This document shows, piece after piece, positions 6,532 to 28,944 of a DNA stretch of 28,944 nt (its first letter is position 1; the number at the start of each line of letters is the position of its first letter). Below the pieces are notes generated by a model. It did not search any database. It worked only from the letters and a program-made list of their open reading frames with translations, and was not told the origin of the DNA. The position numbers were made by a program, and so were the translations under genes. Location of the stretch: positions 1 through 28,944 of IMG/VR virus record IMGVR_UViG_3300045988_129873; one strand, given 5' to 3'. This DNA is from a virus (lineage: Duplodnaviria; Heunggongvirae; Uroviricota; Caudoviricetes).

Positions 6532-6542
6532 TTTGAAGCATA

Positions 6543-6849: not shown

Positions 6850-7134
6850 TAACAAGGGCTTTGCATTAAACATGTTTGAGATTTTATTGATGTAGCTCAA
6901 AGTAAAAAACAGAGACTACGGTTGATAAGGTCTTGAAAGCAATGTAAATTTTTTAAAGTTGCCAATTGCTTAAAAATGTACAGTTGCGGTATGGCGTACT
7001 TAAAAAGCTATGCATGCAACAAGTGAATGTTTTTGCATGCGTTGGGGATGTCCGTTCAGGCTGCGTGCGGTCAGGACTGGTGCGGATCCATAGTATCTAT
7101 GCAACTGCATTAAAACCGCCCCGTGAAGCGGGCG

Positions 7135-7153
7135 GGCGAGGCGGGGAAAGCAC
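7135..7153. other. cos: cos site (19-nt cohesive end sequence ggcgaggcggggaaagcac)
   Basis: Matches the P2 cohesive-end sequence as I recall it. It is a GC-rich island in an otherwise AT-rich intergenic region, located between A and Q as expected for a prophage. Confidence 0.7.
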
Positions 7154-7297
7154 TGCGCGCAGCCCGTCAAGAATAAAAAACTCTCTTGCAGGTAGAAAAC
7201 ATTCTGTTAACATTTGTCTGGATGAAGTTTAAGTTAGAAATTTATGTTAATGAACTGATTGATACTTATGTTTTGTCAATAATTTAGGAATGTTAAG

Positions 7298-8434: not shown

Positions 8435-8440
8435 GAACTA

Positions 8441-8460
8441 GGGGAGCAAATGCTCCCTTT
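8441..8460. terminator. Hairpin gggagc-aaat-gctccc followed by a T-rich run; convergent terminator between the cargo ATPase and Q
   Basis: Read directly from the sequence; 6-bp GC-rich stem, 4-nt loop, TTT after. Confidence 0.55.
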
Positions 8461-8506
8461 CTATATATGGGTTATTAATTACCCGCTTATATAAATATTG
8501 AAGAAA

Positions 8507-11298: not shown

Positions 11299-11471
11299 GA
11301 ATACCTCGCCGTGATGAATACACGGCAAGGCTACTGAGTCGCGCCCCGCGATTCGCTAAGGTGCTGTTGTGTCAGTGATAAGCCATCCGGGACTGATGGC
11401 GGAGGATGCGCATCGTCGGGAAACTGATGCCGACATGTGACTCCTCTAATCACTATTCAGGACTCCTGACA

Positions 11472-12326: not shown

Positions 12327-12384
12327 CCGGCGTCAGTCAGTCCGGGAAAACCTTCACGATTAACCCTTAATTTCAGGAAAAACT

Positions 12385-13458
12385 ATGCGCCAGGAAACCC
12401 GCTTTAAATTTAATGCCTACCTGTCCCGTGTTGCCGAACTGAACGGCATCGACGCCGGTGATGTGTCGAAAAAATTCACCGTTGAACCGTCGGTCACCCA
12501 GACCCTGATGAACACCATGCAGGAGTCCTCTGACTTTCTGACCCGCATCAACATTGTGCCGGTCAGCGAAATGAAAGGGGAAAAAATTGGTATTGGTGTC
12601 ACCGGCTCCATCGCCAGCACCACAGACACCGCCGGTGGCACCGAGCGTCAGCCGAAGGACTTCTCGAAGCTGGCGTCAAACAAGTACGAATGCGACCAGA
12701 TTAACTTCGATTTTTATATCCGCTACAAAACGCTTGACCTGTGGGCGCGTTATCAGGATTTCCAGCTCCGTGTCCGTAACGCCATTATCAAACGCCAGTC
12801 CCTTGATTTAATCATGGCCGGTTTTAACGGCGTAAGGCGTGCCGAAACCTCTGACCGCAGCAGTAACCAGATGCTGCAGGATGTGGCGGTCGGCTGGCTG
12901 CAGAAATACCGCAATGAAGCCCCGGCGCGCGTGATGGGCAAGGTTACTGACGAGGAAGGTCACACCACCTCTGAGGTTATCCGCGTGGGTAAGGGCGGTG
13001 ATTATGCCAGCCTTGATGCACTGGTGATGGATGCGACCAACAACCTGATTGAGCCGTGGTATCAGGAAGACCCTGACCTTGTGGTGATTGTGGGGCGTCA
13101 GTTACTGGCGGACAAGTATTTCCCCATCGTTAACAAGGAGCAGGACAACAGCGAAATGCTGGCCGCTGACGTCATCATCAGCCAGAAACGCATCGGTAAC
13201 CTGCCAGCGGTACGCGTCCCGTACTTCCCGGCGGATGCGATGCTCATCACGAAGCTGGAAAACCTGTCCATCTACTACATGGATGACAGCCATCGCCGCG
13301 TGATTGAGGAAAACCCGAAACTCGACCGCGTGGAGAACTACGAGTCAATGAACATTGATTACGTGGTGGAAGACTACGCCGCCGGTTGTCTGGTGGAAAA
13401 AATTAAGGTCGGTGATTTCTCCACACTGGCTAAAGCGACCGCAGAGCCGGGAGCGTAA
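12385..13458 (+). CDS. N: Major capsid protein N (P2 gpN-like, 357 aa)
   Basis: 357 aa, same as P2 N. Follows O. Confidence 0.92.
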   Translation: MRQETRFKFNAYLSRVAELNGIDAGDVSKKFTVEPSVTQTLMNTMQESSDFLTRINIVPVSEMKGEKIGIGVTGSIASTTDTAGGTERQPKDFSKLASNKYECDQINFDFYIRYKTLDLWARYQDFQLRVRNAIIKRQSLDLIMAGFNGVRRAETSDRSSNQMLQDVAVGWLQKYRNEAPARVMGKVTDEEGHTTSEVIRVGKGGDYASLDALVMDATNNLIEPWYQEDPDLVVIVGRQLLADKYFPIVNKEQDNSEMLAADVIISQKRIGNLPAVRVPYFPADAMLITKLENLSIYYMDDSHRRVIEENPKLDRVENYESMNIDYVVEDYAAGCLVEKIKVGDFSTLAKATAEPGA

Positions 13459-13461
13459 CCG

Positions 13462-14205
13462 ATGACGAGTCCCGCACAGCGCCACATGATGCGGGTCTCG
13501 GCAGCGATGACCGCGCAGCGGGAAGCCGCCCCGCTGCGACATGCAACTGTCTATGAGCAGATGCTGGTTAAGCTCGCCGCAGACCAGCGCACACTGAAAG
13601 CGATTTATTCAAAAGAGCTGAAGGCCGCGAAAAAACGCGAACTGCTGCCGTTCTGGTTGCCGTGGGTGAACGGCGTGCTGGAGCAGGGCAAAGGTGCACA
13701 GGATGACATTCTGATGACGGTCATGCTGTGGCGTCTGGATACCGGCGATATTGCCGGTGCGCTGGAGATTGCCCGTTATGCCTTGAAGTACGGTCTGACC
13801 ATGCCGGGTAAACACCGCCGTACCCCGCCGTACATGTTCACCGAGGAGGTAGCGCTTGCGGCCATGCGCGCTCACGCTGCCGGTGAGTCTGTGGATACCC
13901 GCCTGCTGATGGAGACCCTTGAACTGACCGCCACGGCTGACATGCCTGATGAAGTGCGCGCAAAGCTGCACAAAATTACCGGTCTGTTTCTGCGTGACGG
14001 TGGTGATGCCGCCGGTGCGCTGGCGCACCTGCAACGTGCGACACAGCTCGACTGTCAGGCAGGCGTCAAAAAAGAGATTGAACGACTGGAGCGGGAACTG
14101 AAACCGAAGCCGGAGCCGCAGCCAAAAGCGGCCACGCGCGCCCCGCGTAAGACCCGGAGCGTGGCACCGGCAAAACGTGGACGCCCGAAAAAGAAAGCCA
14201 GTTAA
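13462..14205 (+). CDS. M: Terminase small (endonuclease) subunit M (P2 gpM-like, 247 aa)
   Basis: 247 aa. Basic, lysine-rich C-terminus. Follows N. Confidence 0.9.
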   Translation: MTSPAQRHMMRVSAAMTAQREAAPLRHATVYEQMLVKLAADQRTLKAIYSKELKAAKKRELLPFWLPWVNGVLEQGKGAQDDILMTVMLWRLDTGDIAGALEIARYALKYGLTMPGKHRRTPPYMFTEEVALAAMRAHAAGESVDTRLLMETLELTATADMPDEVRAKLHKITGLFLRDGGDAAGALAHLQRATQLDCQAGVKKEIERLERELKPKPEPQPKAATRAPRKTRSVAPAKRGRPKKKAS

Positions 14206-14304
14206 CAACCGAATGCGCCCCGCGCCAGGGCGGCACGCCGGTCAGTGAGGGTGAATCACCTGACACTGCACCAGCGTCCACCGCCCGACTTTTCAGAGGT
14301 AGTC

Positions 14305-14814
14305 ATGATGACGCTGATTATTCCGCGAAAGGAGGCTCCCGTGTCCGGTGAGGGTACGGTGGTCATCCCGCAACCGGCAGGCGACGAGCCGGTGATTAAA
14401 AACACGTTCTTTTTCCCCGATATCGACCCGAAGCGCGTCCGGGAACGTATGCGCCTTGAGCAGACCGTCGCCCCCGCTCGTCTGCGTGAGGCCATCAAGT
14501 CAGGCATGGCGGAGACGAATGCGGAGCTGTACGAGTACCGCGAACAGAAAATTGCCGCCGGTTTTACGCGTCTGGCGGACGTCCCGGCGGACGATATCGA
14601 CGGTGAAAGCATCAAAGTTTTTTACTACGAGCGCGCCGTGTGTGCGATGGCGACCGCGTCGCTTTATGAGCGTTATCGCGGCGTGGATGCCAGTGCGAAA
14701 GGCGACAAGAAGGCTGACAGCATTGACAGCACCATTGATGAACTGTGGCGGGATATGCGCTGGGCGGTGGCGCGTATCCAGGACAAGCCGCGCTGCATCG
14801 TGAGTCAAATCTGA
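14305..14814 (+). CDS. L: Head completion protein L (P2 gpL-like, 169 aa)
   Basis: Trimmed to the ATG at 14305 (MMTLIIPRKEAPVSG...) with a GAGG SD. Confidence 0.88.
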   Translation: MMTLIIPRKEAPVSGEGTVVIPQPAGDEPVIKNTFFFPDIDPKRVRERMRLEQTVAPARLREAIKSGMAETNAELYEYREQKIAAGFTRLADVPADDIDGESIKVFYYERAVCAMATASLYERYRGVDASAKGDKKADSIDSTIDELWRDMRWAVARIQDKPRCIVSQI

Positions 14815-15017
14815 TGAAGACCTTTGCGCTACAGGGCGACACGCTCGACGCCATCTGTGTCCGGTATTACGGGCGCACTGAGGGCGTGGTTGAGACCGTG
14901 CTCGCCGCAAATCCGGGACTGGCTGAACAGAGTGCGGTGCTGCCACACGGCACCGCCGTCGAACTGCCCGACGTTCAGACCGCGCCCGTGGCTGAAACTG
15001 TCAATCTGTGGGAGTAA
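14814..15017 (+). CDS. X: Tail protein X (P2 gpX-like, 67 aa)
   Basis: ATG overlaps the L stop (TGATG). MKTFALQGDTLDAICVRYYG... 67 aa. Confidence 0.85.
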   Translation: MKTFALQGDTLDAICVRYYGRTEGVVETVLAANPGLAEQSAVLPHGTAVELPDVQTAPVAETVNLWE

Positions 15018-15020
15018 CGC

Positions 15021-15302
15021 ATGACAGCAGAAGAAAAAAGCGTCCTGTCGCTTTTCATGATTGGGGTGCTGATTGTTGTCGGCAAGGTGCTTGCCGGTGG
15101 TGAACCCATCACCCCGCGTCTGTTTATCGGGCGCATGTTGCTCGGTGGTTTTGTCTCGATGGTTGCCGGTGTTGTTCTGGTGCAGTTTCCTGACCTGTCA
15201 CTGCCTGCGGTGTGCGGTATCGGCTCCATGCTGGGTATCGCCGGTTATCAGGTGATTGAGATTGCCATTCAGCGCCGCTTTAAGGGCAGGGGGAAACCGT
15301 AA
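15021..15302 (+). CDS. Y: Holin Y (93 aa)
   Basis: 93 aa with multiple transmembrane segments, immediately upstream of the endolysin. Confidence 0.88.
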   Translation: MTAEEKSVLSLFMIGVLIVVGKVLAGGEPITPRLFIGRMLLGGFVSMVAGVVLVQFPDLSLPAVCGIGSMLGIAGYQVIEIAIQRRFKGRGKP

Positions 15303-15799
15303 TGCCGGTAATTAACACGCATCAGAATATCGCCGCCTTTCTCGACATGCTGGCCGTGTCCGAAGGGACGGCGAATCATCCGCTGACGAAAAACCGGGGC
15401 TATGACGTGATAGTCACCGGACTGGACGGGAAGCCGGAAATTTTCACTGACTACAGTGACCACCCGTTCGCGCATGGCCGACCGGCGAAGGTGTTTAACC
15501 GTCGCGGTGAAAAATCCACGGCCTCCGGTCGCTATCAGCAGCTTTACCTGTTCTGGCCGCACTACCGCAAACAGCTTGCCCTGCCGGATTTCAGTCCGTT
15601 GTCACAGGACAGGCTCGCCATTCAGTTGATCCGCGAACGCGGTGCACTGGATGACATCCGGGCGGGACGCATTGAGCGCGCCATTTCACGCTGTCGCAAT
15701 ATCTGGGCGTCCCTGCCGGGTGCCGGTTACGGTCAGCGTGAGCATTCACTGGAAAAACTGGTCACCGTCTGGCGTACCGCCGGCGGTGTACCTGCTTAA
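15302..15799 (+). CDS. K: Endolysin K (165 aa)
   Basis: 165 aa, same length and position as the P2 endolysin K, directly after the holin. Confidence 0.9.
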   Translation: MPVINTHQNIAAFLDMLAVSEGTANHPLTKNRGYDVIVTGLDGKPEIFTDYSDHPFAHGRPAKVFNRRGEKSTASGRYQQLYLFWPHYRKQLALPDFSPLSQDRLAIQLIRERGALDDIRAGRIERAISRCRNIWASLPGAGYGQREHSLEKLVTVWRTAGGVPA

Positions 15800-15813
15800 A
15801 CGGAGTAAACACC

Positions 15814-16239
15814 ATGAAGAAATTATCCCTTTCACTGATGCTGAATGTGTCGCTGGCGCTGATGCTGGCACTGTCCCTGATTTACCCGCAGAGCGTGGCC
15901 GTCAATTTTGTCGCCGCCTGGGCGATTCTGGCGACGGTTATCTGTGTGGTTGCCGGTGGTGTCGGCGTGTATGCCACTGAGTATGTGCTGGAACGCTACG
16001 GGCGGGAGCTGCCACCGGAATCGCTGGCCGTGAAGATTGTCACGTCACTGTTTTTGCAGCCGGTGCCGTGGTGCAGACGGGCAGTGGCTCTGGTGGCGAT
16101 GGTGGCGACATTTATCTCGCTGGTCGCCGCCGGATGGATTTTTACCGCGCTGATTTATCTTGTGGCGTCGCTGTTTTTCCGGCTGATACGTAAAGCCTGT
16201 CGTCAGCGTCTTGAGGGGCGGGAATTATGTCAAAGCTGA
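15814..16239 (+). CDS. lysA: Lysis accessory membrane protein LysA (141 aa)
   Basis: 141 aa, hydrophobic, multiple TM segments. P2 position. Confidence 0.85.
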   Translation: MKKLSLSLMLNVSLALMLALSLIYPQSVAVNFVAAWAILATVICVVAGGVGVYATEYVLERYGRELPPESLAVKIVTSLFLQPVPWCRRAVALVAMVATFISLVAAGWIFTALIYLVASLFFRLIRKACRQRLEGRELCQS

Positions 16240-16652
16240 TGATTGTGCTGGTCGTGTTGTTATCGCTGGCGGTGGCCGGTCTGTTTCTGGTGAAACACAA
16301 AAATGCCAGCCTGCGCGCCTCGCTGGACAGGGCGAATAACGTCGCCAGTGAACAGCAGACGACCATCACCATGCTGAAAAATCAGCTTCATGTTGCCATC
16401 ACCAGGGCAGACAAAAACGAGCTGGCGCAGGTGGCACTGCGTCAGGAACTGGAGAACGCCGCGAAGCGTGAAGCACAGCGCGAGAAAACCATCACGAGGT
16501 TACTCAATGAAAACGAAGATTTTCGCCGCTGGTACGGCGATGATCTGCCTGATGCTGTGCGCCGGTTGCACCAGCGCCCCGCCTGCACCGACGCCAGTGA
16601 TTGTCCACAACGCCTGCCCGAAAGTGAGCCTTTGCCCGATGCCGGGCAGTGA
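16227..16652 (+). CDS. lysB: LysB, Rz-like i-spanin (141 aa)
   Basis: N-terminal TM anchor plus a periplasmic coiled-coil. Contains lysC in another frame. Confidence 0.85.
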   Translation: MSKLMIVLVVLLSLAVAGLFLVKHKNASLRASLDRANNVASEQQTTITMLKNQLHVAITRADKNELAQVALRQELENAAKREAQREKTITRLLNENEDFRRWYGDDLPDAVRRLHQRPACTDASDCPQRLPESEPLPDAGQ

Positions 16653-16797
16653 CCCGCAGACGAACGGCGATTTAAGTGCCGATATCCGGCAGCTTGAGAA
16701 CGCGCTGGCGCGCTGTGCCAGCCAGGTAAAAATGATTAAACACTGTCAGGACGAAAACGATGCTCAAACCCGACAGCCTGCGCAGGGCGCTGACTGA
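16507..16797 (+). CDS. lysC: LysC, Rz1-like o-spanin lipoprotein (96 aa), embedded out of frame in lysB
   Basis: ATG at 16507. Signal peptide with lipobox (MKTKIFAAGTAMICLMLCAGC). Pro-rich mature part. Confidence 0.8.
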   Translation: MKTKIFAAGTAMICLMLCAGCTSAPPAPTPVIVHNACPKVSLCPMPGSDPQTNGDLSADIRQLENALARCASQVKMIKHCQDENDAQTRQPAQGAD

Positions 16798-17227
16798 TGC
16801 CGTCACGGTGCTGAAAACCAGCCCCGAGATGCTGCGGATATTCGTGGATAACGGGAGTATTGCCTCCACACTGGCGACGTCGCTGTCATTCGAAAAGCGT
16901 TACACGCTCAATGTGATTGTGACCGACTTTACCGGTGATTTTGACCTGCTCATTGTGCCGGTGCTGGCGTGGCTGCGGGAGAATCAGCCCGACATCATGA
17001 CCACCGACGCAGGCCAGAAAAAGGGCTTCACGTTTTATGCAGACATCAACAATGACAGCAGCTTTGATATCAGCATCAGCCTGATGCTGACCGAGCGCAC
17101 GCTGGTCAGTGAGGTGGACGGCGCGCTGCATGTGAAGAATATCCCGGAACCCCCGCCGCCGGAGCCGGTCACCCGCCCGATGGAGCTTTATATCAATGGC
17201 GAACTGGTGAGCAAGTGGGATGAATGA
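16760..17227 (+). CDS. R: Tail completion protein R (155 aa)
   Basis: 155 aa. P2 order lysC-R-S. Confidence 0.88.
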   Translation: MLKPDSLRRALTDAVTVLKTSPEMLRIFVDNGSIASTLATSLSFEKRYTLNVIVTDFTGDFDLLIVPVLAWLRENQPDIMTTDAGQKKGFTFYADINNDSSFDISISLMLTERTLVSEVDGALHVKNIPEPPPPEPVTRPMELYINGELVSKWDE

Positions 17228-17672
17228 GTTTAAGCGTTTTGAAGACCGGCTGGCCGGACTTATTGAATCGCTGTCACCGTCAGGGCGTCGGCGACTGAGT
17301 GCCGAACTGGCGAAACGTCTGCGTCAGAGTCAGCAGCGTCGGGTGATGGCACAGAAAGCCCCGGACGGCACACCCTTCGCGCCACGCCAGCAGCAGAGAG
17401 CCAGAAAAAAGACCGGTCGCGTTAAGCGAAAAATGTTTGCGAAACTTATCACCAGTCGTTTTTTGCATATCCGCGCCAGCCCGGAACAGGCATCAATGGA
17501 ATTTTACGGCGGGAAGTCACCGAAAATCGCCAGTGTGCATCAGTTCGGTCTGTCGGAAGAAACCCGGAAAGACGGTAAGAAAATTGATTATCCGGCGCGT
17601 CCTCTGCTCGGCTTTACCGGTGAGGATGTGCAGATGATTGAAGAGATTATCCTGGCTCACCTCGACCGTTAG
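17220..17672 (+). CDS. S: Tail completion protein S (150 aa)
   Basis: 150 aa. Follows R with an overlapping start. Confidence 0.88.
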   Translation: MNEFKRFEDRLAGLIESLSPSGRRRLSAELAKRLRQSQQRRVMAQKAPDGTPFAPRQQQRARKKTGRVKRKMFAKLITSRFLHIRASPEQASMEFYGGKSPKIASVHQFGLSEETRKDGKKIDYPARPLLGFTGEDVQMIEEIILAHLDR

Positions 17673-17738
17673 TTGTGCCATTCCCGACACCTCATCGTCA
17701 CATTGCCGCCGGTATGACCCGGCGGCATCCTTCCCGTT

Positions 17739-18374
17739 ATGAACACTCTCGCAAATATTCAGGAACTCGCGCGCGCACTGCGCAACATGATACGCACCGG
17801 CATTATCGTCGAAACCGACCTTAACGCCGGTCGCTGCCGTGTGCAGACCGGCGGCATGTGCACCGACTGGCTTCAGTGGCTGACCCATCGCGCCGGACGT
17901 TCGCGCACGTGGTGGGCACCTTCCGAGGGGGAACAGGTGCTGATTCTGGCCGTGGGCGGTGAACTCGACACAGCGTTCGTTCTGCCGGGGATTTATTCCG
18001 GTGATAACCCCGCGCCGTCTGCGTCGGCGGATGCCCTGCATATCCGTTTCCCTGACGGGGCGGTGATTGAGTATGAACCCGAAACCAGTGCACTCACGGT
18101 AAGCGGAATTAAAACGGCCAGCGTGACGGCTTCTGATTCTGTTACTGCCACGGTGCCGGTGGTCATGGTGAAAGCGTCAACCCGCATCACCCTGGACACC
18201 CCGGAGGTGGTCTGCACCAACAGACTGATTACCGGCGCGCTGGAAGTGCAGAAGGGCGGGACGATGCGCGGCAACATTAAACATACCGGCGGTGAACTCT
18301 CATCAAACGGTAAGGTACTGCATACCCATAAACACCCCGGCGACAGCGGCGGCACAACCGGGAGTCCTCTATGA
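17739..18374 (+). CDS. V: Baseplate spike / assembly protein V (211 aa)
   Basis: 211 aa. First gene of the V-W-J-I-H-G late operon. Confidence 0.9.
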   Translation: MNTLANIQELARALRNMIRTGIIVETDLNAGRCRVQTGGMCTDWLQWLTHRAGRSRTWWAPSEGEQVLILAVGGELDTAFVLPGIYSGDNPAPSASADALHIRFPDGAVIEYEPETSALTVSGIKTASVTASDSVTATVPVVMVKASTRITLDTPEVVCTNRLITGALEVQKGGTMRGNIKHTGGELSSNGKVLHTHKHPGDSGGTTGSPL

Positions 18375-18718
18375 CAGCGCGTTATCTTGGAATGAATCGC
18401 AGTGATGGCCTGACTGTCACTGACCTTGAGCATATCAGCCAGAGTATCGGCGATATCCTGCGCACGCCGGTCGGCTCACGGGTGATGCGTCGTGATTACG
18501 GCTCATTGCTGGCGTCAATGATTGACCAGCCGCAGACCCCGGCGCTTGAGTTACAGATTAAGGTCGCCTGTTACATGGCGGTGCTGAAATGGGAACCCCG
18601 CGTCACCCTGTCATCCGTCACCACTGAGCGCAGTTTTGACGGGCGAATGACAGTTACGTTAACCGGCCAGCACAACGACACCGGCCAGCAACTTTCGTTA
18701 ACCATCCCTGTGAGTTGA
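18371..18718 (+). CDS. W: Baseplate wedge protein W (gp25-like, 115 aa)
   Basis: 115 aa. Overlapping start with the V stop. Confidence 0.9.
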   Translation: MTARYLGMNRSDGLTVTDLEHISQSIGDILRTPVGSRVMRRDYGSLLASMIDQPQTPALELQIKVACYMAVLKWEPRVTLSSVTTERSFDGRMTVTLTGQHNDTGQQLSLTIPVS

Positions 18719-18722
18719 AACC

Positions 18723-19631
18723 ATGCCGATTATCGACCTGAACCAGCTACCCGCACCGGATGTGGTCGAGGAGCTGGACTTTGAAACCATTCTTGCCGAA
18801 CGCAAGGCGACACTGATTTCCCTTTACCCGGAAGACCAGCAGGAGGCGGTTGCCCGTACCCTGACGCTGGAATCCGAGCCTCTCGTCAAACTGCTGGAGG
18901 AAAATGCTTATCGTGAGCTTATCTGGCGTCAGCGTGTGAATGAGGCCGCACGGGCGGTAATGCTGGCCTGTGCCGCCGGTAATGACCTTGATGTGATTGG
19001 TGCCAATTACAACACCACACGCCTGATTATCACCCCGGCAGATGATTCGACCATCCCGCCGACACCGGCAGTGATGGAATCTGACACCGATTATCGGCTG
19101 CGTATTCAGCAGGCGTTTGAAGGTTTAAGCGTCGCCGGGTCGGTGGGTGCCTATCAGTATCATGGCCGCAGTGCCGACGGGCGTGTCGCGGATATCTCTG
19201 TCACCAGTCCGTCTCCGGCCTGCGTCACTATCTCTGTGCTGTCACGTGAAAATAACGGTGTCGCATCCGAAGACCTGCTGGCGGTGGTGCGTAACGCCCT
19301 TAATGGCGAGGACGTCAGGCCGGTGGCCGACCGCGTGACCGTGCAGTCTGCCGCCATCGTTGAATACCAGATAAACGCCACGCTTTACCTTTACCCTGGT
19401 CCCGAAAGCGAACCCATACGCGCTGCCGCCGTGAAAAAACTGGAAGCGTATATCACGGCACAGCACCGGCTGGGGCGCGATATCCGACTGTCTGCCATTT
19501 ATGCCGCTTTGCATGTGGAAGGCGTGCAGCGTGTCGAACTGGCTGCACCGCTGGCCGATATCGTGCTTAACAGCACGCAGGCGTCTTTCTGTACCGAATA
19601 CAGCGTCGTGACCGGAGGCTCGGATGAGTGA
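18723..19631 (+). CDS. J: Baseplate protein J (302 aa)
   Basis: 302 aa. P2 order. Confidence 0.9.
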   Translation: MPIIDLNQLPAPDVVEELDFETILAERKATLISLYPEDQQEAVARTLTLESEPLVKLLEENAYRELIWRQRVNEAARAVMLACAAGNDLDVIGANYNTTRLIITPADDSTIPPTPAVMESDTDYRLRIQQAFEGLSVAGSVGAYQYHGRSADGRVADISVTSPSPACVTISVLSRENNGVASEDLLAVVRNALNGEDVRPVADRVTVQSAAIVEYQINATLYLYPGPESEPIRAAAVKKLEAYITAQHRLGRDIRLSAIYAALHVEGVQRVELAAPLADIVLNSTQASFCTEYSVVTGGSDE

Positions 19632-20154
19632 TTCGCGACTGCTGCCGACCGGCTCATCACCGCTTGAAGTCGCCGCCGCAAAAGCCTGTGCGGAAATTGA
19701 AAAAACGCCGGTCAGGATTCGTGAGCTGTGGAACCCGGACACCTGCCCGGCAAATTTGCTGCCGTGGCTGGCGTGGGCGTTTTCGGTCGACAGATGGGAT
19801 GAAAAGTGGCCGGAAGCGACAAAACGCGCCGTTATCCGCGATGCCTATTTCATCCACTGTCATAAAGGCACTATCGGCGCAATCCGGCGTGTGGTGGAGC
19901 CGCTCGGCTATCTCATCAACGTGACGGAGTGGTGGGAAAACAGTGACCCGCCCGGCACCTTCCGGCTCGATATTGGTGTACTGGAAAGCGGCATCACAGA
20001 GGCAATGTATCAGGAAATGGAACGGCTGATTGCTGATGCCAAACCTGCAAGTCGCCACCTTATTGGCCTGAACATTACCCGGGACATTCCCGGCTACCTG
20101 TTCGCCGGTTGTGTGGCTTACGACGGCGATGTAATTACGGTTTACCCCGGATAA
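19624..20154 (+). CDS. I: Baseplate protein I (176 aa)
   Basis: 176 aa. Overlaps the J end. Confidence 0.9.
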   Translation: MSDSRLLPTGSSPLEVAAAKACAEIEKTPVRIRELWNPDTCPANLLPWLAWAFSVDRWDEKWPEATKRAVIRDAYFIHCHKGTIGAIRRVVEPLGYLINVTEWWENSDPPGTFRLDIGVLESGITEAMYQEMERLIADAKPASRHLIGLNITRDIPGYLFAGCVAYDGDVITVYPG

Positions 20155-20164
20155 GTGAGGAATA

Positions 20165-22414
20165 ATGAGCACAAAATTCAGAACCGTTATCACCACTGCC
20201 GGTGCAGCAAAGCTGGCAGCGGCAACCGCGCCGGGAGGGCGGAAGGTCAACATTACCACGATGGCCGTCGGGGATGGCGGTGGTAAATTGCCTGTCCCGG
20301 ATGCCGGACAGACCGGGCTTATCCACGAAGTCTGGCGACATGCGCTGAACAAAATCAGCCAGGACAAACGAAACAGTAATTATATTATCGCAGAGCTGGT
20401 TATTCCGCCGGAGGTGGGCGGTTTCTGGATGCGTGAGCTTGGCCTGTACGATGATGCGGGAACGTTAATTGCCGTGGCGAACATGGCCGAAAGTTATAAG
20501 CCTGCCCTTGCCGAAGGCTCAGGGCGTTCGCAGACCTGCCGCATGGTCATCATCGTCAGCAGTGTGGCCTCAGTGGCGCTGACCATTGACACCACAACGG
20601 TGATGGCAACGCAGGATTACGTTGATGACAAAATTGCAGAGCACGAACAGTCACGACGTCACCCGGACGCCTCGCTGACCGCAAAAGGTTTTACTCAGCT
20701 AAGCAGCGCGACCAACAGCACGTCTGAAACACTGGCCGCAACGCCGAAAGCAGTAAAGACCGCCTATGACCTTGCTAACGGGAAATATACTGCGCAGGAT
20801 GCCACCACAGCGCGAAAAGGTCTTGTCCAGCTCAGTAGTGCCACCAACAGCACGTCTGAAACGCTCGCCGCAACACCAAAAGCGGTTAAGGCAGCGTATG
20901 ACCTTGCTAACGGGAAATACACTGCACAGGACGCCACCACAGCGCGAAAAGGTCTTGTCCAGCTCAGTAGCGTCACCAACAGCGATTCTGAAACGCTTGC
21001 GGCAACGCCAAAGGCGGTAAAGGCCGCGTATGACCTTGCTAACGGGAAATACACTGCACAGGATGCCACTACAGCGCGAAAAGGTCTTGTCCAGCTCAGT
21101 AGCGCCACCAACAGTGATTCTGAAACGCTGGCCGCAACATCAAAAGCGGTGAAGTCTGCCTATGACAATGCTGAAAAACGTCTTCAGAAAGATCAGAACG
21201 GTGCGGATATTCCTGATAAAGGACGCTTCCTGAGTAACATTAATGTTTACAGCAAAGGTGAAGTGGATAAGAAAAAGGGAATGCGAAAGTATTCGTTTGC
21301 AGCCCCTGCAAATGTCGTTGCCGGGAAGTGGTATCCCGTTATCTTTCGCCGTGCTGCCAGCCTTTCAGGAGAAATGGCATCCCGCGTCGTTATTTCAACT
21401 GGTTGTTATAACGGCGATTATGTAATGAATAACTGCGAGTTTAATGGCATGGTTATGCCCGGAGGCTGGACCGATCGTGGTTCATATGCGGCAGGTTATT
21501 TCTGGACGTATCAGACTAATGAGCGTTCAATCCATTCCATTGTTACAAGCCTGAAAGATGATGATGTATGTAGTGTTTTTTATGTTGAAGCCAGAGCTTT
21601 CCCAGTACAAATTCTTGCAGAGGAAGGGCTAACGGTTATTGTTCCGACAGAGGATTATGTCGTCGGTCAGACGACATATAAGTGGGGGGCAACTAATCCC
21701 GCTACAGAAAGCACGAACGTACAGGCTATTCTGGATTTTAAAAATGGACGTGGTTATTACTGTTCACATCCATTTATTTCCAGCCTTTCAGGAAATGCTG
21801 CAACAGCAACGAAGTTAGCGAACGCAAGAAATATTAATGGTGTCAGATTTGATGGCTCTGCCGATATAAATATTAATACACTGGTATCCAGAAACCGTGT
21901 TACTGCATTAGGTGGGAGCGTAAAGGGGACACCAGGTATTCAGATGTATGAGGCATACAACAATGGCTACCCAACAGCCTATGGTAATGTGCTTCATCTC
22001 ACTGGCGTAACCGCTGTAGGAGAGGGTGAGTTACTTATTGGCTGGAGTGGAACCAGCGGTGCTCATGCTCCGGCATATATTCGCTCCCGACGAGATACCA
22101 CAGATGCTAACTGGTCTGGATGGGCGCAACTATATACAACTGCTCATAAACCCTCAGCGGGAGATGTTGGTGCATACACCAAAGCTGAGTCAGATTCACG
22201 TTATGTGAGAGACATGCGGTTGGGCGGTGCATCTACATATAAACCAGCAAATAATGGTACTACATGGACGCATCAGGCTCCGTCAGGTTGCGTATATACC
22301 GGCATTATTGTTCAGGATACCGGCTCAAACTCTGCCGATAACATTGGTGGCGTATATTACAGACCGGTGCAGAAATACATTAACGGGACATGGTATAACG
22401 TGGCGCAGGTATAA
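20165..22414 (+). CDS. H: Tail fibre protein H (749 aa) with internal tandem repeats and a lower-GC C-terminal receptor-binding part
   Basis: Conserved N-terminal baseplate-attachment region. Fibre repeat motifs (SSATNSTSETLAATPKAVK). Position before tail-fibre assembly gene G. Confidence 0.9.
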   Translation: MSTKFRTVITTAGAAKLAAATAPGGRKVNITTMAVGDGGGKLPVPDAGQTGLIHEVWRHALNKISQDKRNSNYIIAELVIPPEVGGFWMRELGLYDDAGTLIAVANMAESYKPALAEGSGRSQTCRMVIIVSSVASVALTIDTTTVMATQDYVDDKIAEHEQSRRHPDASLTAKGFTQLSSATNSTSETLAATPKAVKTAYDLANGKYTAQDATTARKGLVQLSSATNSTSETLAATPKAVKAAYDLANGKYTAQDATTARKGLVQLSSVTNSDSETLAATPKAVKAAYDLANGKYTAQDATTARKGLVQLSSATNSDSETLAATSKAVKSAYDNAEKRLQKDQNGADIPDKGRFLSNINVYSKGEVDKKKGMRKYSFAAPANVVAGKWYPVIFRRAASLSGEMASRVVISTGCYNGDYVMNNCEFNGMVMPGGWTDRGSYAAGYFWTYQTNERSIHSIVTSLKDDDVCSVFYVEARAFPVQILAEEGLTVIVPTEDYVVGQTTYKWGATNPATESTNVQAILDFKNGRGYYCSHPFISSLSGNAATATKLANARNINGVRFDGSADININTLVSRNRVTALGGSVKGTPGIQMYEAYNNGYPTAYGNVLHLTGVTAVGEGELLIGWSGTSGAHAPAYIRSRRDTTDANWSGWAQLYTTAHKPSAGDVGAYTKAESDSRYVRDMRLGGASTYKPANNGTTWTHQAPSGCVYTGIIVQDTGSNSADNIGGVYYRPVQKYINGTWYNVAQV
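20684..21181 (+). repeat. Tandem 132-bp (44-aa) in-frame repeat array, about 3.75 copies, inside gene H
   Basis: aaaggtcttgtccagctcagtag recurs at 20816, 20948 and 21080 (period 132). Protein units KG[FL][TV]QLSS[AV]TNS[TD]SETLAATPKAVK[TA]AYDLANGKYTAQDATTAR. Confidence 0.9.
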
Positions 22415-22417
22415 TTT

Positions 22418-22945
22418 ATGCAGCATTTAAAAAATATTACGGCGGGTAATCCAAAAACGGTTGAACAATATCAATTGACAAAGGACTTTGATGTTGTCTG
22501 GTTTTTTTCAGAAGATGGTAAGAACTGGTACGAAGAACAAAAGTATTTTGCTGATGACACGATAAAAATAGCGTACGACAAAGATAATATCATCCACTAT
22601 GTGGAAAAGGATGTGACAGCTATCAGACCGGATGGATTAAGTGTTGTTGAAGTGGCGGATATTACTGCTAACCGACGGGCGGACATTTCAGGGAACTGGA
22701 TGTTTAAGGACGGCAAAGTGATTAAACGCATTTATACGGCAGAGGAATTACAGCAGCAGGCAGAAATTCGGAAAGCCAGACTTCTTGCAGATGCTGAATC
22801 CGTGATTTTGCCGCTGGAGCGCGCGGTCAGACTGAACATGGCAACAGATGAGGAGCGCAGCCGACTGGAAGCATGGGAACGCTACAGCGTTCTGGTCAGT
22901 CGTGTGGATCCTGCAAATCCTGAATGGCCGGAAATGCCGCAATAA
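22418..22945 (+). CDS. G: Tail fibre assembly chaperone G (175 aa)
   Basis: 175 aa. Directly downstream of H. Confidence 0.88.
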
Positions 22946-23107
22946 GTTGTATGAGCTCTGGTGTGAGCTTACATATTTATGGCACAGAGTAAAGCCTAAT
23001 CTGACAGTCCGCTCTGTGCCACGAGCGGAAGCTGTCAAGATCATGCTAGATAGCGGGAGGGGCAAGCAATAGCAGATATGCGAACATGGTGATATATAAG
23101 ATAAATA

Positions 23108-23136
23108 GCCTATCAATAATAAAATCCCTGATAGGC
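23108..23136 (-). terminator. Candidate hairpin terminator downstream of the 720-aa cargo gene (stem gcctatca/tgataggc, 13-nt loop)
   Basis: Inverted repeat read from the sequence, about 50 bp 3' of the minus-strand stop. The loop is long and the T-tract weak. Confidence 0.3.
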
Positions 23137-23182
23137 TGTGATGAATAATTAATTCAGTCATTGAACCATATACTGCGGTTTT

Positions 23183-25345
23183 TTAGTTCTTTATTTTTGC
23201 CATTTTTTTATAATGTGCAGAATAACCTGTGTGCTCAAACACTAATCTAAGCCCCTCTTTGAAATCATTATAGTTAAATTCCTTGAAGTCAAAAATGTTC
23301 TGTCCTAATGAGTGTGACTCTCTGTTTATGTAACGAATAAAGGATTGAAATCGTGGTTTTTTTAACTCTGGTTTTTGAGTGACATTGCTTAAATCTGCTT
23401 TTTGTACAAAATTGAAAAAGTATTCAATTATATTTCTCATGCAGTTAGCAATTAAGGCAGGAGGCTGTTTGTCATCATTGATTACTGACCAATAAGACTG
23501 GTAGTCATTTTGTATTTCATCGTATTTCATTAAGATAATTGAACTGCCGTTGGAGTTTTTAGAAAGCCTAAATAAATTTTGATTTTCTTTTCTTCTTTCA
23601 TGGTTTGCATCAGCGAGTTCATAGAAAAAATATAAGCTGTGAGATAAAACAAATATCTGCTCTATTTCATTAGAGTTAAAGAAATCATTTTTTATTAGTT
23701 GGCCTATATTGTAGACAAAAATATGTGATAAGCTTGATACAGGATCATCGATTATAGCTATTTTTTTGGTTTTACCCTCGGTGGCGACTCTTTTACCTCT
23801 GAATAGTTCTCTAAAATACAAAAGGCTGATAATCATTTTTTCGCCTTCACTTAATGATGAGAATACTTTAGAATTAGAGTCATTACGTACTATGCGATAA
23901 AGAGTATCCTCATATTTTGCGATGTGAAAATCTGTGATTCCGATGTCATTTAAACCTTGGTTTATGTTGAATACGGCATCATCTATATTTACTGTTGATT
24001 TCTGATATTCAATCCGTTCTGCATCTTTAGTCTTTATTTTTGCTTCTTTTTCATCTTTGGCGGTGTTTTTTCTGATTATTATAATGTTTGCACTTTCTTT
24101 TATTTCGTTGAAATTTAAAATTGTTTGATCATACTCATACCTTAAGAACTGCCAGAAAGAAATTTTTATTTTTTCTAGCTCGTGTTTTGCATTGTCTATT
24201 TTTGAGTTATGTGTGGTTATTTCATTGTTCACTAATTTCACTAATGAATTGAAGTTATCAACAGAGTTGGATATATCATTCAGCGTTACTGGGGTACTGG
24301 GGTTTGTTACCTTCTGCTTTATTAGTTCCAAGTTGCTCTCTGTATCTTTTCTTAACAGGGCGTAACAGTCGCTTAATTGAACTATATAATTTGAAGATAG
24401 TTTGCATTCTTTATAAGTATCCAGTGAAGGAATACTGTCAATCAATGAGTTATATTTGGTCTGAATGGATTTTATTTTTTTTACACTATCTTGATACGTT
24501 TCATCGAAATAGTTGCGAATATGCTGAACCAAGTTTTCAGTTATAATTTGAGATTGACAAAATGGACACTGAGAATCTCCTGTTTGTTCTAAGTATTTTA
24601 GTCCTTCATTTACCCAATCAGAGTTCTGAAGCTTACTTATAAGATATGAAACGGGACTATCTGTACTTCCCACAATTATATTCTGAAGTAATTCCACTTC
24701 ATCGAGTGATAATACGATGGTGTGAATCTCCTCTAGCATGCTGTATTTTATTGCTGTTTCGCCATCAATCGCACTTGCTTCTTCTTTTAAGTCAGAGATG
24801 TTTTTTGATGGCTTAGAATTAGGTAAAGGAATGGAGCAAAGATGGTTGAATAATGATTCTTTACTTCCCATTTTTCCTAATAAACAAAATTCAAGGACCC
24901 TGTCACCACCTGAATAGTTGGTTTTTATTTCCCATGTTTTATTTTGAGCTTTGTTTTTTGCATCAGAAACAGAGGTGTTTTGTGCTGTTATTTCTTTTTC
25001 AATTTCACGTTTTTCATCAGATAGTTTTATTATTTCTAATGTGAGGCTCTCAACCTTTTCTTTTGCTTCTTTATTTTCCTTGGACAAGCTAAATATTCCA
25101 TTTAAAGAATCCTTTGCATAAAAGTTATCCTGAATGAATTTCTGATTGTAGACAAGGATTTCATCATACTCACCTGAGTGGGAACAATTCTCATATTTTT
25201 TATTATCTATGTCATAGAAATAATTGGAGAAGGTGCTTTTACCTGTTCCATTTAAACCATAAATAATATTTACTTTTTTATCAGTATTTAACTCTGATTT
25301 TGACTTATAACTTGCAACTTTATTTAGAACTATATTGTTTATCAT
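23183..25345 (-). CDS. AT-rich cargo gene at the Z/fun position: ABC/SMC-type ATPase with coiled-coil, CxxC hook-like motif and C-terminal HEPN-like R-x6-H; candidate RloC/PrrC-like defence nuclease, 720 aa
   Basis: Walker A GLNGTGKST at residues 30-38 (25232..25258). Charged coiled-coil stretches around residues 85-135 and 370-450. SQCPFCQ at residues 257-263 (about 24557..24577). ABC-signature-like SLSEGEK at 497-503. Walker B KKIAIIDDP at 527-535 (23741..23767). H-loop-like VLSHS at about 566-570. RYINRESH at 671-678 (23312..23335). About 25-30% GC in sampled stretches. Confidence 0.8.
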   Translation of the reverse strand: MINNIVLNKVASYKSKSELNTDKKVNIIYGLNGTGKSTFSNYFYDIDNKKYENCSHSGEYDEILVYNQKFIQDNFYAKDSLNGIFSLSKENKEAKEKVESLTLEIIKLSDEKREIEKEITAQNTSVSDAKNKAQNKTWEIKTNYSGGDRVLEFCLLGKMGSKESLFNHLCSIPLPNSKPSKNISDLKEEASAIDGETAIKYSMLEEIHTIVLSLDEVELLQNIIVGSTDSPVSYLISKLQNSDWVNEGLKYLEQTGDSQCPFCQSQIITENLVQHIRNYFDETYQDSVKKIKSIQTKYNSLIDSIPSLDTYKECKLSSNYIVQLSDCYALLRKDTESNLELIKQKVTNPSTPVTLNDISNSVDNFNSLVKLVNNEITTHNSKIDNAKHELEKIKISFWQFLRYEYDQTILNFNEIKESANIIIIRKNTAKDEKEAKIKTKDAERIEYQKSTVNIDDAVFNINQGLNDIGITDFHIAKYEDTLYRIVRNDSNSKVFSSLSEGEKMIISLLYFRELFRGKRVATEGKTKKIAIIDDPVSSLSHIFVYNIGQLIKNDFFNSNEIEQIFVLSHSLYFFYELADANHERRKENQNLFRLSKNSNGSSIILMKYDEIQNDYQSYWSVINDDKQPPALIANCMRNIIEYFFNFVQKADLSNVTQKPELKKPRFQSFIRYINRESHSLGQNIFDFKEFNYNDFKEGLRLVFEHTGYSAHYKKMAKIKN

Positions 25346-25871
25346 GATTTGCCATTTAGATGTTCGTGAATAAAGATTGATAAAGTATCTCTTATGAGGG
25401 CTCTAAGCAAGTAAAAGAGTGATATTTTGCGACATAGATACAAAAGATATTACCTCGCTGCTGCGGGGGGGTATCTTCATTGCAAGGCTTGGGTGTCAGT
25501 TAATTTAAGTGGTGGTTTTGATTATCTTTATATTTTCATGATTAACTAATCACTGTAAAAATTATTTTGTATTTTAGTTGGTCTTTTTTGATTCTAAAAT
25601 TAATAGTGTGCAGGATAAGCGTAAACTAATTTATTCACCGAAACGGTTGGCGGTTCTGTTCGTATTTTTTTCATTCTTGTAGACCCCGCTTCATTCAACA
25701 GTACGTTCAGTAGGTGAGCCTTTATACCACAAGTTTTTTAACTGCCCATAAAAATATTAAAAGTGCGCCTACGAAGTTGCAAGGCCTGCTCCTCGCTCAA
25801 GCAGGCTGTCAGATTTGATAGCGTTTTGGCTATGTAAACTGTCAGTCGGAAAATGAGTGAGTACAAATCAA

Positions 25872-25902
25872 GGCAGGCAATCTGATTGCCCGCCTTTTCT
25901 TT
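25872..25902 (+). terminator. Rho-independent terminator (stem ggcaggcaa/ttgcccgcc with one mismatch, loop tctga, T-tract ttttctttatc), probably ending the H-G late transcript beyond the cargo island
   Basis: Read directly from the sequence. Sits between the cargo island and the FI start. Confidence 0.55.
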
Positions 25903-25998
25903 ATCTGTTGTTTCATCCACTGACCAGTCAGGTCAAATAGCGTCTCATGCACTGCCCAACAGAAAATAGTTGCACCCATTAACCACGGAGTTAAACGG

Positions 25999-27189
25999 AT
26001 GAGTGACTATCATCATGGCGTGCAGGTGCTGGAGATTAACGACGGCACCCGCGTCATTTCCACCGTATCCACTGCCATTGTCGGCATGGTCTGCACGGCC
26101 AGCGATGCGGATGCGGAAACCTTCCCCCTCAATAAACCTGTGCTGATTACCAATGCCCAGAGCGCAATTGCAAAGGCCGGTAAAAAAGGCACGCTGGCGG
26201 CATCGTTGCAGGCCATCGCTGACCAGTCAAAACCGGTCACCGTTGTCGTGCGCGTGGAAGACGGCACCGGTGATGACGAGGAAACGAAACTCGCGCAGAC
26301 CGTTTCCAATATCATCGGCACCACCGACGAAAACGGTCAGTACACCGGACTAAAAGCCCTGCTGGCGGCGGAGTCGGTAACCGGTGTTAAACCGCGTATT
26401 CTCGGTGTGCCGGGACTGGATACCAAAGAGGTGGCTGTTGCACTGGCATCCGTCTGTCAGAAGCTGCGCGCTTTCGGATATATCAGCGCATGGGGCTGTA
26501 AGACCATTTCCGAGGTGAAAGCCTACCGCCAGAATTTCAGCCAGCGTGAGCTGATGGTCATCTGGCCGGATTTCCTCGCATGGGATACGGTCACCAGTAC
26601 CACCGCCACCGCGTATGTCACCGCCCGTGCGCTGGGTCTGCGCGCTAAAATCGACCAGGAGCAGGGCTGGCATAAAACGCTGTCCAACGTCGGGGTAAAC
26701 GGTGTTACCGGCATCAGCGCGTCCGTATTCTGGGATTTGCAGGAGTCCGGCACCGATGCTGACCTGCTTAACGAGTCAGGCGTCACAACGCTGATTCGCC
26801 GTGACGGTTTCCGCTTCTGGGGTAACCGTACCTGCTCTGATGACCCGCTGTTCCTCTTTGAAAACTACACCCGCACCGCGCAGGTGCTGGCCGACACGAT
26901 GGCTGAGGCGCACATGTGGGCGGTGGACAAGCCCATCACCGCAACGCTGATTCGCGACATCGTTGACGGCATCAATGCCAAATTCCGAGAGCTGAAAACA
27001 AACGGCTATATCGTGGATGCGACCTGCTGGTTCAGCGAAGAATCCAACGATGCGGAAACCCTCAAGGCCGGAAAACTGTATATCGACTACGACTATACCC
27101 CGGTGCCTCCTCTCGAAAACCTGACCCTGCGCCAGCGTATTACCGATAAATACCTGGCAAATCTGGTCACCTCGGTTAACAGCAATTAA
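25999..27189 (+). CDS. FI: Tail sheath protein FI (396 aa)
   Basis: 396 aa, same as P2 FI. Followed by FII-E-T. Confidence 0.92.
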   Translation: MSDYHHGVQVLEINDGTRVISTVSTAIVGMVCTASDADAETFPLNKPVLITNAQSAIAKAGKKGTLAASLQAIADQSKPVTVVVRVEDGTGDDEETKLAQTVSNIIGTTDENGQYTGLKALLAAESVTGVKPRILGVPGLDTKEVAVALASVCQKLRAFGYISAWGCKTISEVKAYRQNFSQRELMVIWPDFLAWDTVTSTTATAYVTARALGLRAKIDQEQGWHKTLSNVGVNGVTGISASVFWDLQESGTDADLLNESGVTTLIRRDGFRFWGNRTCSDDPLFLFENYTRTAQVLADTMAEAHMWAVDKPITATLIRDIVDGINAKFRELKTNGYIVDATCWFSEESNDAETLKAGKLYIDYDYTPVPPLENLTLRQRITDKYLANLVTSVNSN

Positions 27190-27201: not shown

Positions 27202-27720
27202 ATGGCAATGCCGCGCAAACTCAAATACATGAATGTCTTTCTGAACGGCTACAGCTATCAGGGCGTTGCAACGTCCGTCACGCTGCCAAAACTGACCCGT
27301 AAGCTCGAAAATTATCGCGGTGCGGGGATGAACGGCAGCGCACCGGTAGACCTCGGCCTTGATGACGATGCGCTGTCAATGGAGTGGTCGCTCGGGGGTT
27401 TCCCGGATTCGGTTATCTGGGAGCTTTACGCTGCAACCAGTGCTGATGCCGTACCGATTCGTTTTGCTGGTTCTTACCAGCGCGACGATACCGGCGAAAC
27501 GGTGGCCGTCGAAGTGGTCATGCGTGGGCGTCAGAAAGAAGTCGACACCGGAGAGGGTAAACAGGGAGAGGATACCGAATCGAAACTCCCGGTGATTTGT
27601 ACTTATTTCCGGCTGACGATGGACGGTAAGGAGCTGGTCGAAATCGACACCATCAACATGATTGAGAAGGTGAACGGCGTCGACCGGCTGGAGCAACACC
27701 GCCGAAATATCGGCCTGTGA
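27202..27720 (+). CDS. FII: Tail tube protein FII (172 aa)
   Basis: 172 aa. P2 order. Confidence 0.92.
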   Translation: MAMPRKLKYMNVFLNGYSYQGVATSVTLPKLTRKLENYRGAGMNGSAPVDLGLDDDALSMEWSLGGFPDSVIWELYAATSADAVPIRFAGSYQRDDTGETVAVEVVMRGRQKEVDTGEGKQGEDTESKLPVICTYFRLTMDGKELVEIDTINMIEKVNGVDRLEQHRRNIGL

Positions 27721-27776: not shown

Positions 27777-28052
27777 ATGAACAAAGAAAATGTCATTACC
27801 CTGGAAAATCCGGTCAAACGTGGTGAGCAGGTTATCGAACAGGTCACGCTGATGAAACCCAATGCCGGGACGCTGCGCGGTGTCAGTCTGGCTGCGGTTG
27901 CAAACTCCGAAGTCGATGCACTGATTAAGGTGCTGCCGCGCATGACGGCACCGATGCTGACCGAGCAGGAAGTCGCCGCGCTGGAACTGCCTGACCTTGT
28001 GGCGCTGGCCGGTAAGGTGGTCGGTTTTTTGTCGCCGAACTCGGTGCAGTGA
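27777..28052 (+). CDS. E: Tail assembly chaperone E (91 aa)
   Basis: 91 aa. Ends ...VGFLSPNSVQ, just after the slippery heptamer. Confidence 0.88.
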   Translation: MNKENVITLENPVKRGEQVIEQVTLMKPNAGTLRGVSLAAVANSEVDALIKVLPRMTAPMLTEQEVAALELPDLVALAGKVVGFLSPNSVQ

Positions 28053-28204
28053 CGTTTCCGAAAAATCTGTCGGTCGATGACCTGATGGCGGATGTGGCAG
28101 TGATATTTCACTGGCCGCCATCAGAACTGTATCCCATGAGCCTGACCGAACTCATCACATGGCGCGAAAAGGCGCTCCGGCGAAGCGGAAACACGAATGA
28201 GTAA
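27777..28204 (+). CDS. E': E+E' fusion produced by programmed -1 ribosomal frameshift at 28025..28031
   Basis: Heptamer T-TTT-TTG in the E frame. Manual translation of the -1 frame from 28031 gives VAELGAVTFPKNLSVDDLMADVAVIFHWPPSELYPMSLTELITWREKALRRSGNTNE, stop at 28202..28204, overlapping the T start. Confidence 0.8.
28025..28031 (+). promoter_or_regulatory. -1 frameshift slippery heptamer TTTTTTG
   Basis: X-XXY-YYZ pattern confirmed in the E reading frame (codons TTT 28026..28028, TTG 28029..28031). Confidence 0.8.
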
Positions 28205-28944
28205 CAATGTAAAATTACAGGTATTGCTCAGGGCTGTTGACCAGGCATCCCGCCCGTTTAAATCCATCCGTACAGCGAGCAAGTCGCTGTCGGGGGATAT
28301 CCGGGACACACAAAAATCACTGCGCGAGCTGAACGGTCACGCATCCCGTATTGAGGGATTTCGCAAGACCAGCGCACAGCTTGCCGTGACTGGTCATGCA
28401 CTTGAGAAGGCACGGCTGGAAGCCGAAGCCCTTGCCACACAGTTTAAAAATACCGAACGTCCGACCCGTGCTCAGGCGAAAGTGCTGGAATCCGCAAAGC
28501 GAGCGGCGGAGGACTTACAGGCGAAATATAACCGCCTGACGGATTCCGTTAAACGCCAGCAGCGGGAACTGGCTGCTGTGGGAATTAATACCCGCAATCT
28601 TGCACATGATGAGCAGGGGCTGAAAAACCGTATCAGTGAAACCACCGCGCAGCTTAACCGGCAGCGTGACGCGCTGGCGCGTGTCAGTGCGCAACAGGCA
28701 AAACTTAACGCAGTCAAACAGCGTTATCAGGCCGGAAAGGAACTGGCCGGAAATATGGCCTCAGTGGGCGCTGCCGGTGTGGGGATTGCTGCTGCGGGAA
28801 CGATGGCCGGAGTTAAGTTGCTGATGCCCGGTTATGAGTTTGCGCAGAAAAACTCAGAATTGCAGGCTGTGCTCGGTGTGGCAAAAGACTCCGCCGAAAT
28901 GGCTGCACTACGCAAGCAGGCGCGCCAGCTCGGCGACAATACCG
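28197..28944 (+). CDS. T: Tail tape measure protein T, 5' part only (runs off the window end)
   Basis: ATG at 28197 (MSNNVKLQVLLRAVDQ...). Alpha-helical, Ala/Gln/Arg-rich sequence. No stop before 28944. Confidence 0.88.
   Translation, partial: MSNNVKLQVLLRAVDQASRPFKSIRTASKSLSGDIRDTQKSLRELNGHASRIEGFRKTSAQLAVTGHALEKARLEAEALATQFKNTERPTRAQAKVLESAKRAAEDLQAKYNRLTDSVKRQQRELAAVGINTRNLAHDEQGLKNRISETTAQLNRQRDALARVSAQQAKLNAVKQRYQAGKELAGNMASVGAAGVGIAAAGTMAGVKLLMPGYEFAQKNSELQAVLGVAKDSAEMAALRKQARQLGDNT

Follow-up and report, generated by a model that had tools for sequence, protein, structure and literature searches.

The region between nucleotides 27777 and 28204 of the window, which is the whole 28,944-nucleotide stretch of DNA analyzed here, raises the question of whether two tail-assembly proteins are made from one start codon by a programmed −1 ribosomal frameshift, and whether such a frameshift would be a new one or one already known. 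The original prediction had named the genes involved as E, E′, and T, had placed the shift in the −1 direction, and had pointed to G/GT of bacteriophage lambda as the analogue. All of these designations proved correct, and the locus is 99% identical to that of bacteriophage P2.

Anatomy of the E/E′ locus and its identity with P2

In the last 3 kb of the window, the tail genes follow one another on the plus strand in the order sheath, tube, E/E′, and tape measure. The sheath gene FI (25999..27189; Pfam PF04984/PF17482) precedes the tail tube gene FII (27202..27720), which adjoins E upstream and codes for a 172-amino acid protein that matches the Phage_tube family (Pfam PF04985, E = 9.6e-60) and corresponds to P2 gpFII in the AF063097 record. 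E itself extends from an ATG to a TGA (27777..28052) and appears in the list of open reading frames (ORFs) as the frame-0 product gpE, a predicted tail assembly chaperone of 91 amino acids. The tape measure gene T starts with the ATG at 28197..28199 and runs off the window, which holds its N-terminal 249 codons (28197..28944). It is a long, coiled-coil ORF that corresponds to P2 gpT, and residues 199–249 of the portion available here match TIGR01760 tape_meas_TP901 (E = 4.1e-08). In P2, E and E′ are genes of the FETUD tail operon.

The 3′ end of E reads GGT TTT TTG TCG CCG AAC TCG GTG CAG TGA. Upstream, the −1 frame is closed by a TAA at 28013..28015 and is open from 28016. Since the frames of E and E′ overlap by just 37 nt (28016..28052, plus strand), a length that is identical in the closest relatives, the shift that joins E to E′ must fall within this stretch. 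It contains the heptamer T_TTT_TTG at 28025..28031, with position 28025 as the third base of the Gly codon GGT and with GGT TTT TTG as the frame-0 codons; the claim that a slippery TTTTTTG lies in X_XXY_YYZ phase in E is thereby borne out. The distance from the heptamer to the E stop is 21 nt. Upon re-reading of G28031, the −1 frame continues as GTC GCC GAA for a total of 57 sense codons, followed by the TAA at 28202..28204; the E′ segment accordingly occupies 28031..28204. The 58 codons said earlier to stay open past the site are obtained if the stop is counted, the number of sense codons being 57. Likewise, the 7 nt given as the distance from the T initiation codon to the end of E′ are obtained when counting starts from the first base of the ATG, whereas the overlap between the E′ stop and the T start amounts to 8 nt (ATGAGTAA, 28197..28204). 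The reconstructed fusion coding sequence, join(27777..28031, 28031..28204), specifies a 142-amino acid protein, gpE+E′, with the predicted junction VVGFL/VAELGAV (the slash marking the change of frame). It is indeed absent from the six-frame ORF track, as had been claimed; however, most of E′ is present there as a 51-amino acid ORF that starts with GTG (28049..28204).

Judged by its sequence, the window is a P2-like (Peduovirus) prophage of E. coli. Within positions 1..25000 of the window, about 75% is matched by P2 and related phages, at about 96% identity. Over the 601 nt spanning the site, identity to P2 is 98.5%, and several E. coli chromosomes carry exactly the same sequence there (100%). 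Over E/E′ and the start of T, 430 of 434 nt agree with the P2 record AF063097. Two of the differences are silent, and two are amino acid substitutions in gpE (89 of 91 residues identical), namely, E10 here versus D in P2, and N29 versus S; E′ is identical at 57 of 57 residues. The heptamer, its phase, the overlap stretch, the length of E′, the stop codon, the 8-nt overlap with T, and the flanking FII and T genes are all identical. At the Z/fun and tin/old loci, the prophage carries cargo other than that of P2, a difference that has no bearing on the frameshift.

The annotation of P2 speaks directly to the frame change. The AF063097 record describes gpE+E′ with the words ‘shares amino terminus with gpE; −1 frameshift; essential tail protein’. 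When the reconstruction used here is carried out on the P2 sequence, it reproduces the deposited gpE+E′ (AAD03292.1/NP_046780.1/UniProt O64312, TAPFS_BPP2, ‘Tail assembly protein E′’) residue for residue, and the fusion encoded in the window differs from O64312 at two residues. A misc_feature of the same record, ‘site of −1 translational frameshift’, is located at P2 position 19685, which corresponds to window position 28032 and adjoins the 3′ end of the heptamer. This placement raised the possibility of a Phe codon at the junction, which was rejected, the deposited P2 protein carrying Val. The presence of Val at the junction implies that G28031 is read twice, with the proviso that the Leu-Val junction of P2 is an annotation rather than a sequenced peptide. 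For P2, a −1 shift at TTTTTTG giving rise to a 91-amino acid E and a 142-amino acid E+E′ has been described (Lynch et al. 2010, PMC3091744, citing Christie et al. 2002 and Xu et al. 2004).

Both halves of the fusion belong to recognized protein families. The frame-0 part matches Pfam PF10109 Phage_TAC_7 (‘E, or 41 or 14’; E = 3.8e-12, 46.5 bits versus a cutoff of 25), and the −1-frame part matches Pfam PF06528 Phage_P2_GpE over fusion residues 104–139 (E = 1.2e-21, 76.3 bits versus a cutoff of 23). The same division is seen among PHROG families, with phrog_103 covering E (E = 6.8e-45) and phrog_1756 and phrog_6416 covering E′. The exact gpE protein is found on at least 1000 contigs under the name ‘phage tail assembly protein’. 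Neither E nor the fusion matched a model in NCBIfam, and a sequence search of the PDB with an E+E′ profile retrieved no relative of solved structure. On the strength of these family matches, the locus is a member of the P2 gpE/gpE+E′ family; at 99% identity, the feature is already known and represents the type example itself.

Conservation of the heptamer and selection across the shift

A scan of IMG/VR yielded 80 related loci, 73 of them distinct, with 64–99% identity. The original prediction had looked to conservation of the site in relatives, and such conservation was found: in-phase TTTTTT(G/A) is kept in all 80 loci, as TTTTTTG in 78 and as TTTTTTA in two, in every case within the overlap of the two frames. 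Moreover, GGTTTTTT is invariant in the 73 distinct relatives although the third bases of GGT and TTT are synonymous in E. Upstream of the site, the mean variability at the three codon positions of frame 0 is 0.11/0.04/0.27, and downstream of the E stop the corresponding values for the −1 frame are 0.07/0.04/0.21. The most variable codon position thus changes frame at the heptamer, which indicates that purifying selection switches frame there. A tblastn search with the fusion returned 421 phage records from hosts including Escherichia, Klebsiella, Salmonella, Yersinia, Burkholderia, Ralstonia, Pseudomonas, Vibrio, Aeromonas, and Mannheimia, and nearly all of the 60 matches listed align in two frames.

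These data bear on the view that E′ is a separate small gene translated from the GTG at 28049 (51 amino acids, 28049..28204), in which case no frameshift would be necessary. Such a gene appears in the mechanical ORF list, and the same ORF is annotated separately by RefSeq/PGAP in E. coli PCN033 as ‘GpE family phage tail protein’ (segment coordinates 6350..6505). A separate E′ is also encountered in phage records, e.g., as orf24.5 of phiCTX and in the records of Yersinia 56.17 and Aeromonas LPM4. However, no Shine-Dalgarno sequence lies within 20 nt before this GTG, and in just 17 of the 71 distinct relatives is GTG 28049 the first start-like codon; in 38 of the 71, this role falls to an ATG inside the conserved DDLMAD motif. 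Independent initiation of E′ would also not require a heptamer that is invariant even at positions synonymous in frame 0, and the P2 record lists E+E′ as a fusion with the amino terminus of gpE. Separate translation of E′ is therefore considered very unlikely.

A further alternative is that an open frame happens to follow a run of Ts and gives no functional product. The geometry taken by itself is common, since the −1 frame stays open for at least 57 codons at about 6% of in-gene positions, and TTTTTTG occurs 21 times in the window (14 times on the plus and seven times on the minus strand). In ORFs of 90 amino acids or more, 68 slippery heptamers are in phase, and five of these, the one in E included, open a −1 frame that extends at least 30 codons past the frame-0 stop; the ORFs with the other four overlap longer ORFs or oppose phage genes and look spurious. 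In contrast to what chance would provide, the −1-frame peptide of E′ falls within a curated Pfam family (E = 1.2e-21) and is under frame-specific purifying selection across genera. Together with the in-phase heptamer in 80 of 80 loci, the family membership and the frame-specific selection exclude chance, the probability of which is regarded as vanishingly small.

The arrangement extends beyond close relatives. Peduoviridae and related phages such as Burkholderia KS5, KS14, and KL3, phiCTX, the Salmonella phage BIS20 (an Eganvirus), Vibrio VHML-like phages, and Mannheimia 535AP1 display the same two-domain, two-frame architecture, and most of them keep TTTTTTG. In a sample of 12 distant phages with 30–80% identity to the fusion, an in-phase T-rich heptamer occupies the homologous Gly/Thr-Phe-Leu position in 10, with TTTTTTG in eight, TTTTTTC in Vibrio MAR, and TTTTTTT in Vibrio 1F53 (1F53_PE003). 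Mannheimia phage 535AP1 has GGGAAAG instead (segment coordinates 582..588), the same heptamer as in lambda, and Citrobacter phage Shae_phiSM has a candidate AAATTTT (segment coordinates 552..558) with a longer linker before the E′ motif. This motif, DDLMADIAxIFHWPPSE...WRE, is encoded by the −1 frame in 12 of the 12. Unlike in the prophage studied here, no overlap exists between the end of E′ and the following gene in Vibrio MAR and Mannheimia.

The distant phages also inform the choice between ribosomal and transcriptional slippage. In the latter, an extra U would be inserted by RNA polymerase at the run of six Ts, and the junction would read GFFVAEL rather than GFLVAEL. The T run at the site is homopolymeric and is even longer in Vibrio phage 1F53_PE003 (T7), and sequence alone does not distinguish the two processes. 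Productive slippage by E. coli RNA polymerase takes place on runs of about 8–9 or more, and six Ts are shorter than this. The Mannheimia 535AP1 site, GGGAAAG, is a classical ribosomal heptamer and not homopolymeric, and the traits that are conserved are the X_XXY_YYZ phase and the G at the seventh base rather than the length of the run. The deposited P2 protein, as annotated, has the Leu-Val and not the Phe-Val junction. Taken together, these points make transcriptional slippage an extremely improbable source of the fusion.

Expected course of the frameshift

A programmed −1 ribosomal frameshift, by which this P2-like prophage obtains two tail-assembly chaperones from one start codon, is very probably what the locus encodes, and no feature of the sequence speaks against it. 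For the ribosomal nature of the shift, its frequency, the essentiality of E′, and the chaperone roles of both domains, the following account draws on inference and on the literature. Most ribosomes would read E to its stop and release gpE of 91 amino acids. A minority would slip back by one base while the P site holds Phe-tRNA paired to UUU and the A site holds Leu-tRNA paired to UUG. The slipped tRNAs would re-pair on UUU_UUU, and decoding would resume at GUC (Val) and proceed through the 57 codons of E′. Shifted ribosomes would then stop at the TAA at 28202..28204, inside the start of T, and release gpE+E′ of 142 amino acids. The expected tryptic junction peptide of such a tandem −1 slip is VVGFLVAELGAVTFPK, while recovery of the tryptic peptide VVGFFVAELGAVTFPK would indicate either a transcriptional insertion of one U or a slip confined to the P site. 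In P2, the fusion product has reportedly been verified, the efficiency of the shift is said to be about 10%, and E′ is reportedly essential. Production of the fusion by a ribosomal shift and its essentiality would be expected to hold for the present copy, given its 99% identity to P2.

Lambda provides the model for the roles of the two products, gpG and gpGT reportedly being tail assembly chaperones. The G/GT class is characterized by binding of the tape measure by the short product, binding of the tube subunit by the extension, and absence of both from the mature virion; by analogy, the shared E domain would coat the tape measure protein gpT, and the rare E′ domain would recruit subunits of the tail tube (and sheath). 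A low and fixed ratio of E+E′ to E, set by the slip frequency, would be what matters, because E would coat gpT and E′ would recruit the subunits. The two loci resemble each other in several respects. Both are situated between the gene for the major tail tube protein and that for the tape measure, both rely on a −1 slip on an X_XXY_YYZ heptamer near the end of the upstream ORF, and both yield an abundant short product along with a low-abundance fusion that has the same N-terminus. The distance from the heptamer to the stop of the upstream ORF is 18 nt in lambda (G) as compared with 21 nt here (E), and the stop of GT overlaps the start of H by 8 nt (ATGGCTGA, segment coordinates 1643..1650), the same length as in the prophage. 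Despite these likenesses, several differences exist. The lambda heptamer is G_GGA_AAG rather than T_TTT_TTG, the extension comprises 144 rather than 57 codons, and the lambda tail is non-contractile whereas that of P2 is contractile. Homology to lambda gpG/gpGT went undetected when a 13-sequence E+E′ profile was aligned with lambda GT by hhalign (probability 0.7%, E = 0.077). With no detectable sequence homology, ‘analogous’ is the right word, and the locus counts as a functional analogue of lambda G/GT whose homology is not demonstrable from sequence.

The sequence around the site held no credible conserved cis-acting stimulator of the dnaX/IS3 type, i.e., a hairpin or pseudoknot 5–9 nt 3′ or a Shine-Dalgarno-like element 10–14 nt 5′ of the heptamer. 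Lynch et al. (2010, PMC3091744) likewise mention finding no RNA structure downstream. The downstream segment 28032..28120 folds with z = −1.5, and 19 of 200 shuffled sequences fold as well. A 5-bp hairpin at 28033..28046 was rejected as a stimulator, for it begins 1 nt past the heptamer and displays no two-sided compensation; its three inner pairs are kept in 94–100% of relatives (one of them never varying), and its outer pairs are kept in 69% and broken in 31%. Upstream, a hairpin of 8 bp (four G-C and four G-U pairs, −10.2 kcal/mol) at 28004..28025 abuts the slippery T run and was flagged in a scan for the terminator consensus, which found six sites as against 4.8 expected. Its interpretation, jointly with the T run, as a conserved intrinsic terminator or attenuator was rejected, three of the pairs being kept in just 57–70% of close relatives. 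Distant relatives share no common fold with this hairpin, which is probably incidental. An AAGGTGG sequence resembling a Shine-Dalgarno element (28014..28020) was likewise dismissed as a dnaX-type stimulator owing to a spacing of 4 nt and its lack of conservation in distant relatives. Rfam gave nothing meaningful, either for the whole window at gathering thresholds or around the site at E ≤ 1.

A reporter survey carried out in E. coli (Sharma et al. 2014, PMC4066793) does not include U_UU.U_UU.G in its list of the most efficient motifs, and the efficiency at the present site is therefore not predictable from its sequence. The absence of the motif from this list is in keeping with selection for a ratio that is low and fixed, and not for high efficiency. 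The motif is almost invariant in the family despite having no place among the most efficient ones listed for E. coli.

The E′ stop overlaps the T start in 44 of 44 distinct junctions of relatives, by 8 nt in 40 of the 44, and no clear Shine-Dalgarno sequence precedes the start codon of T. Given the 8-nt overlap and the lack of an obvious Shine-Dalgarno sequence, translation of the tape measure might be coupled in part to the termination of frameshifted ribosomes, a reading considered rather unlikely. If such coupling took place, the frequency of the slip would set both the ratio of E+E′ to E and a roughly matched supply of gpT. Alternatively, the overlap of E′ and T could simply be a product of compact dual coding.

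Annotation of E/E′ and other regions of the prophage

Of 5426 complete E. coli genomes, 1583 (about 29%) have a copy of the locus. Recoding at E/E′, which sets the proportions of two tail-assembly chaperones, is a textbook example, and the copy in the window adds no new knowledge to it. It matters for annotation only, automatic pipelines still splitting E from E′; the locus is correctly described as having one start and two products, the longer one being join(27777..28031, 28031..28204). In E. coli PCN033 (NZ_CP006632.1; locus at segment coordinates 6078..6505), for example, PGAP splits E′ off as a stand-alone gene of 51 amino acids.

Two further regions of the prophage carry cargo. Similarity to P2 ends at 23029, and an island of 33% GC (23030..25998), equivalent to the Z/fun locus of P2, lies between the tail-fibre assembly gene G and the sheath gene FI. 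On its minus strand (23183..25345), it encodes a 720-amino acid AAA_13 ATPase (PF13166, E = 3.2e-108) that matches the PADLOC candidate defence system PDC-S06 over nearly its full length (PDLC04886, E = 9.8e-255); by these matches, the gene is probably anti-phage cargo replacing fun(Z). Directly downstream of the PDC-S06 gene, an ATG ORF of 137 amino acids (22748..23161, minus strand) shares about 200 nt with the 3′ end of gene G. Neither Pfam nor PADLOC gives a match for this ORF, which may be spurious or may be a small gene acting as a partner to the island. The second region (6240..8500, 41–44% GC) is situated between the replication gene A and the portal gene Q and is equivalent to the tin/old locus of P2. 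An ORF on its plus strand (7298..8434) encodes a 378-amino acid ParA/MinD-like P-loop protein with an N-terminal KGGIGKST sequence (PF13614 AAA_31, E = 4.4e-10), which is without a match in PADLOC and may represent an uncharacterised cargo or defence gene.
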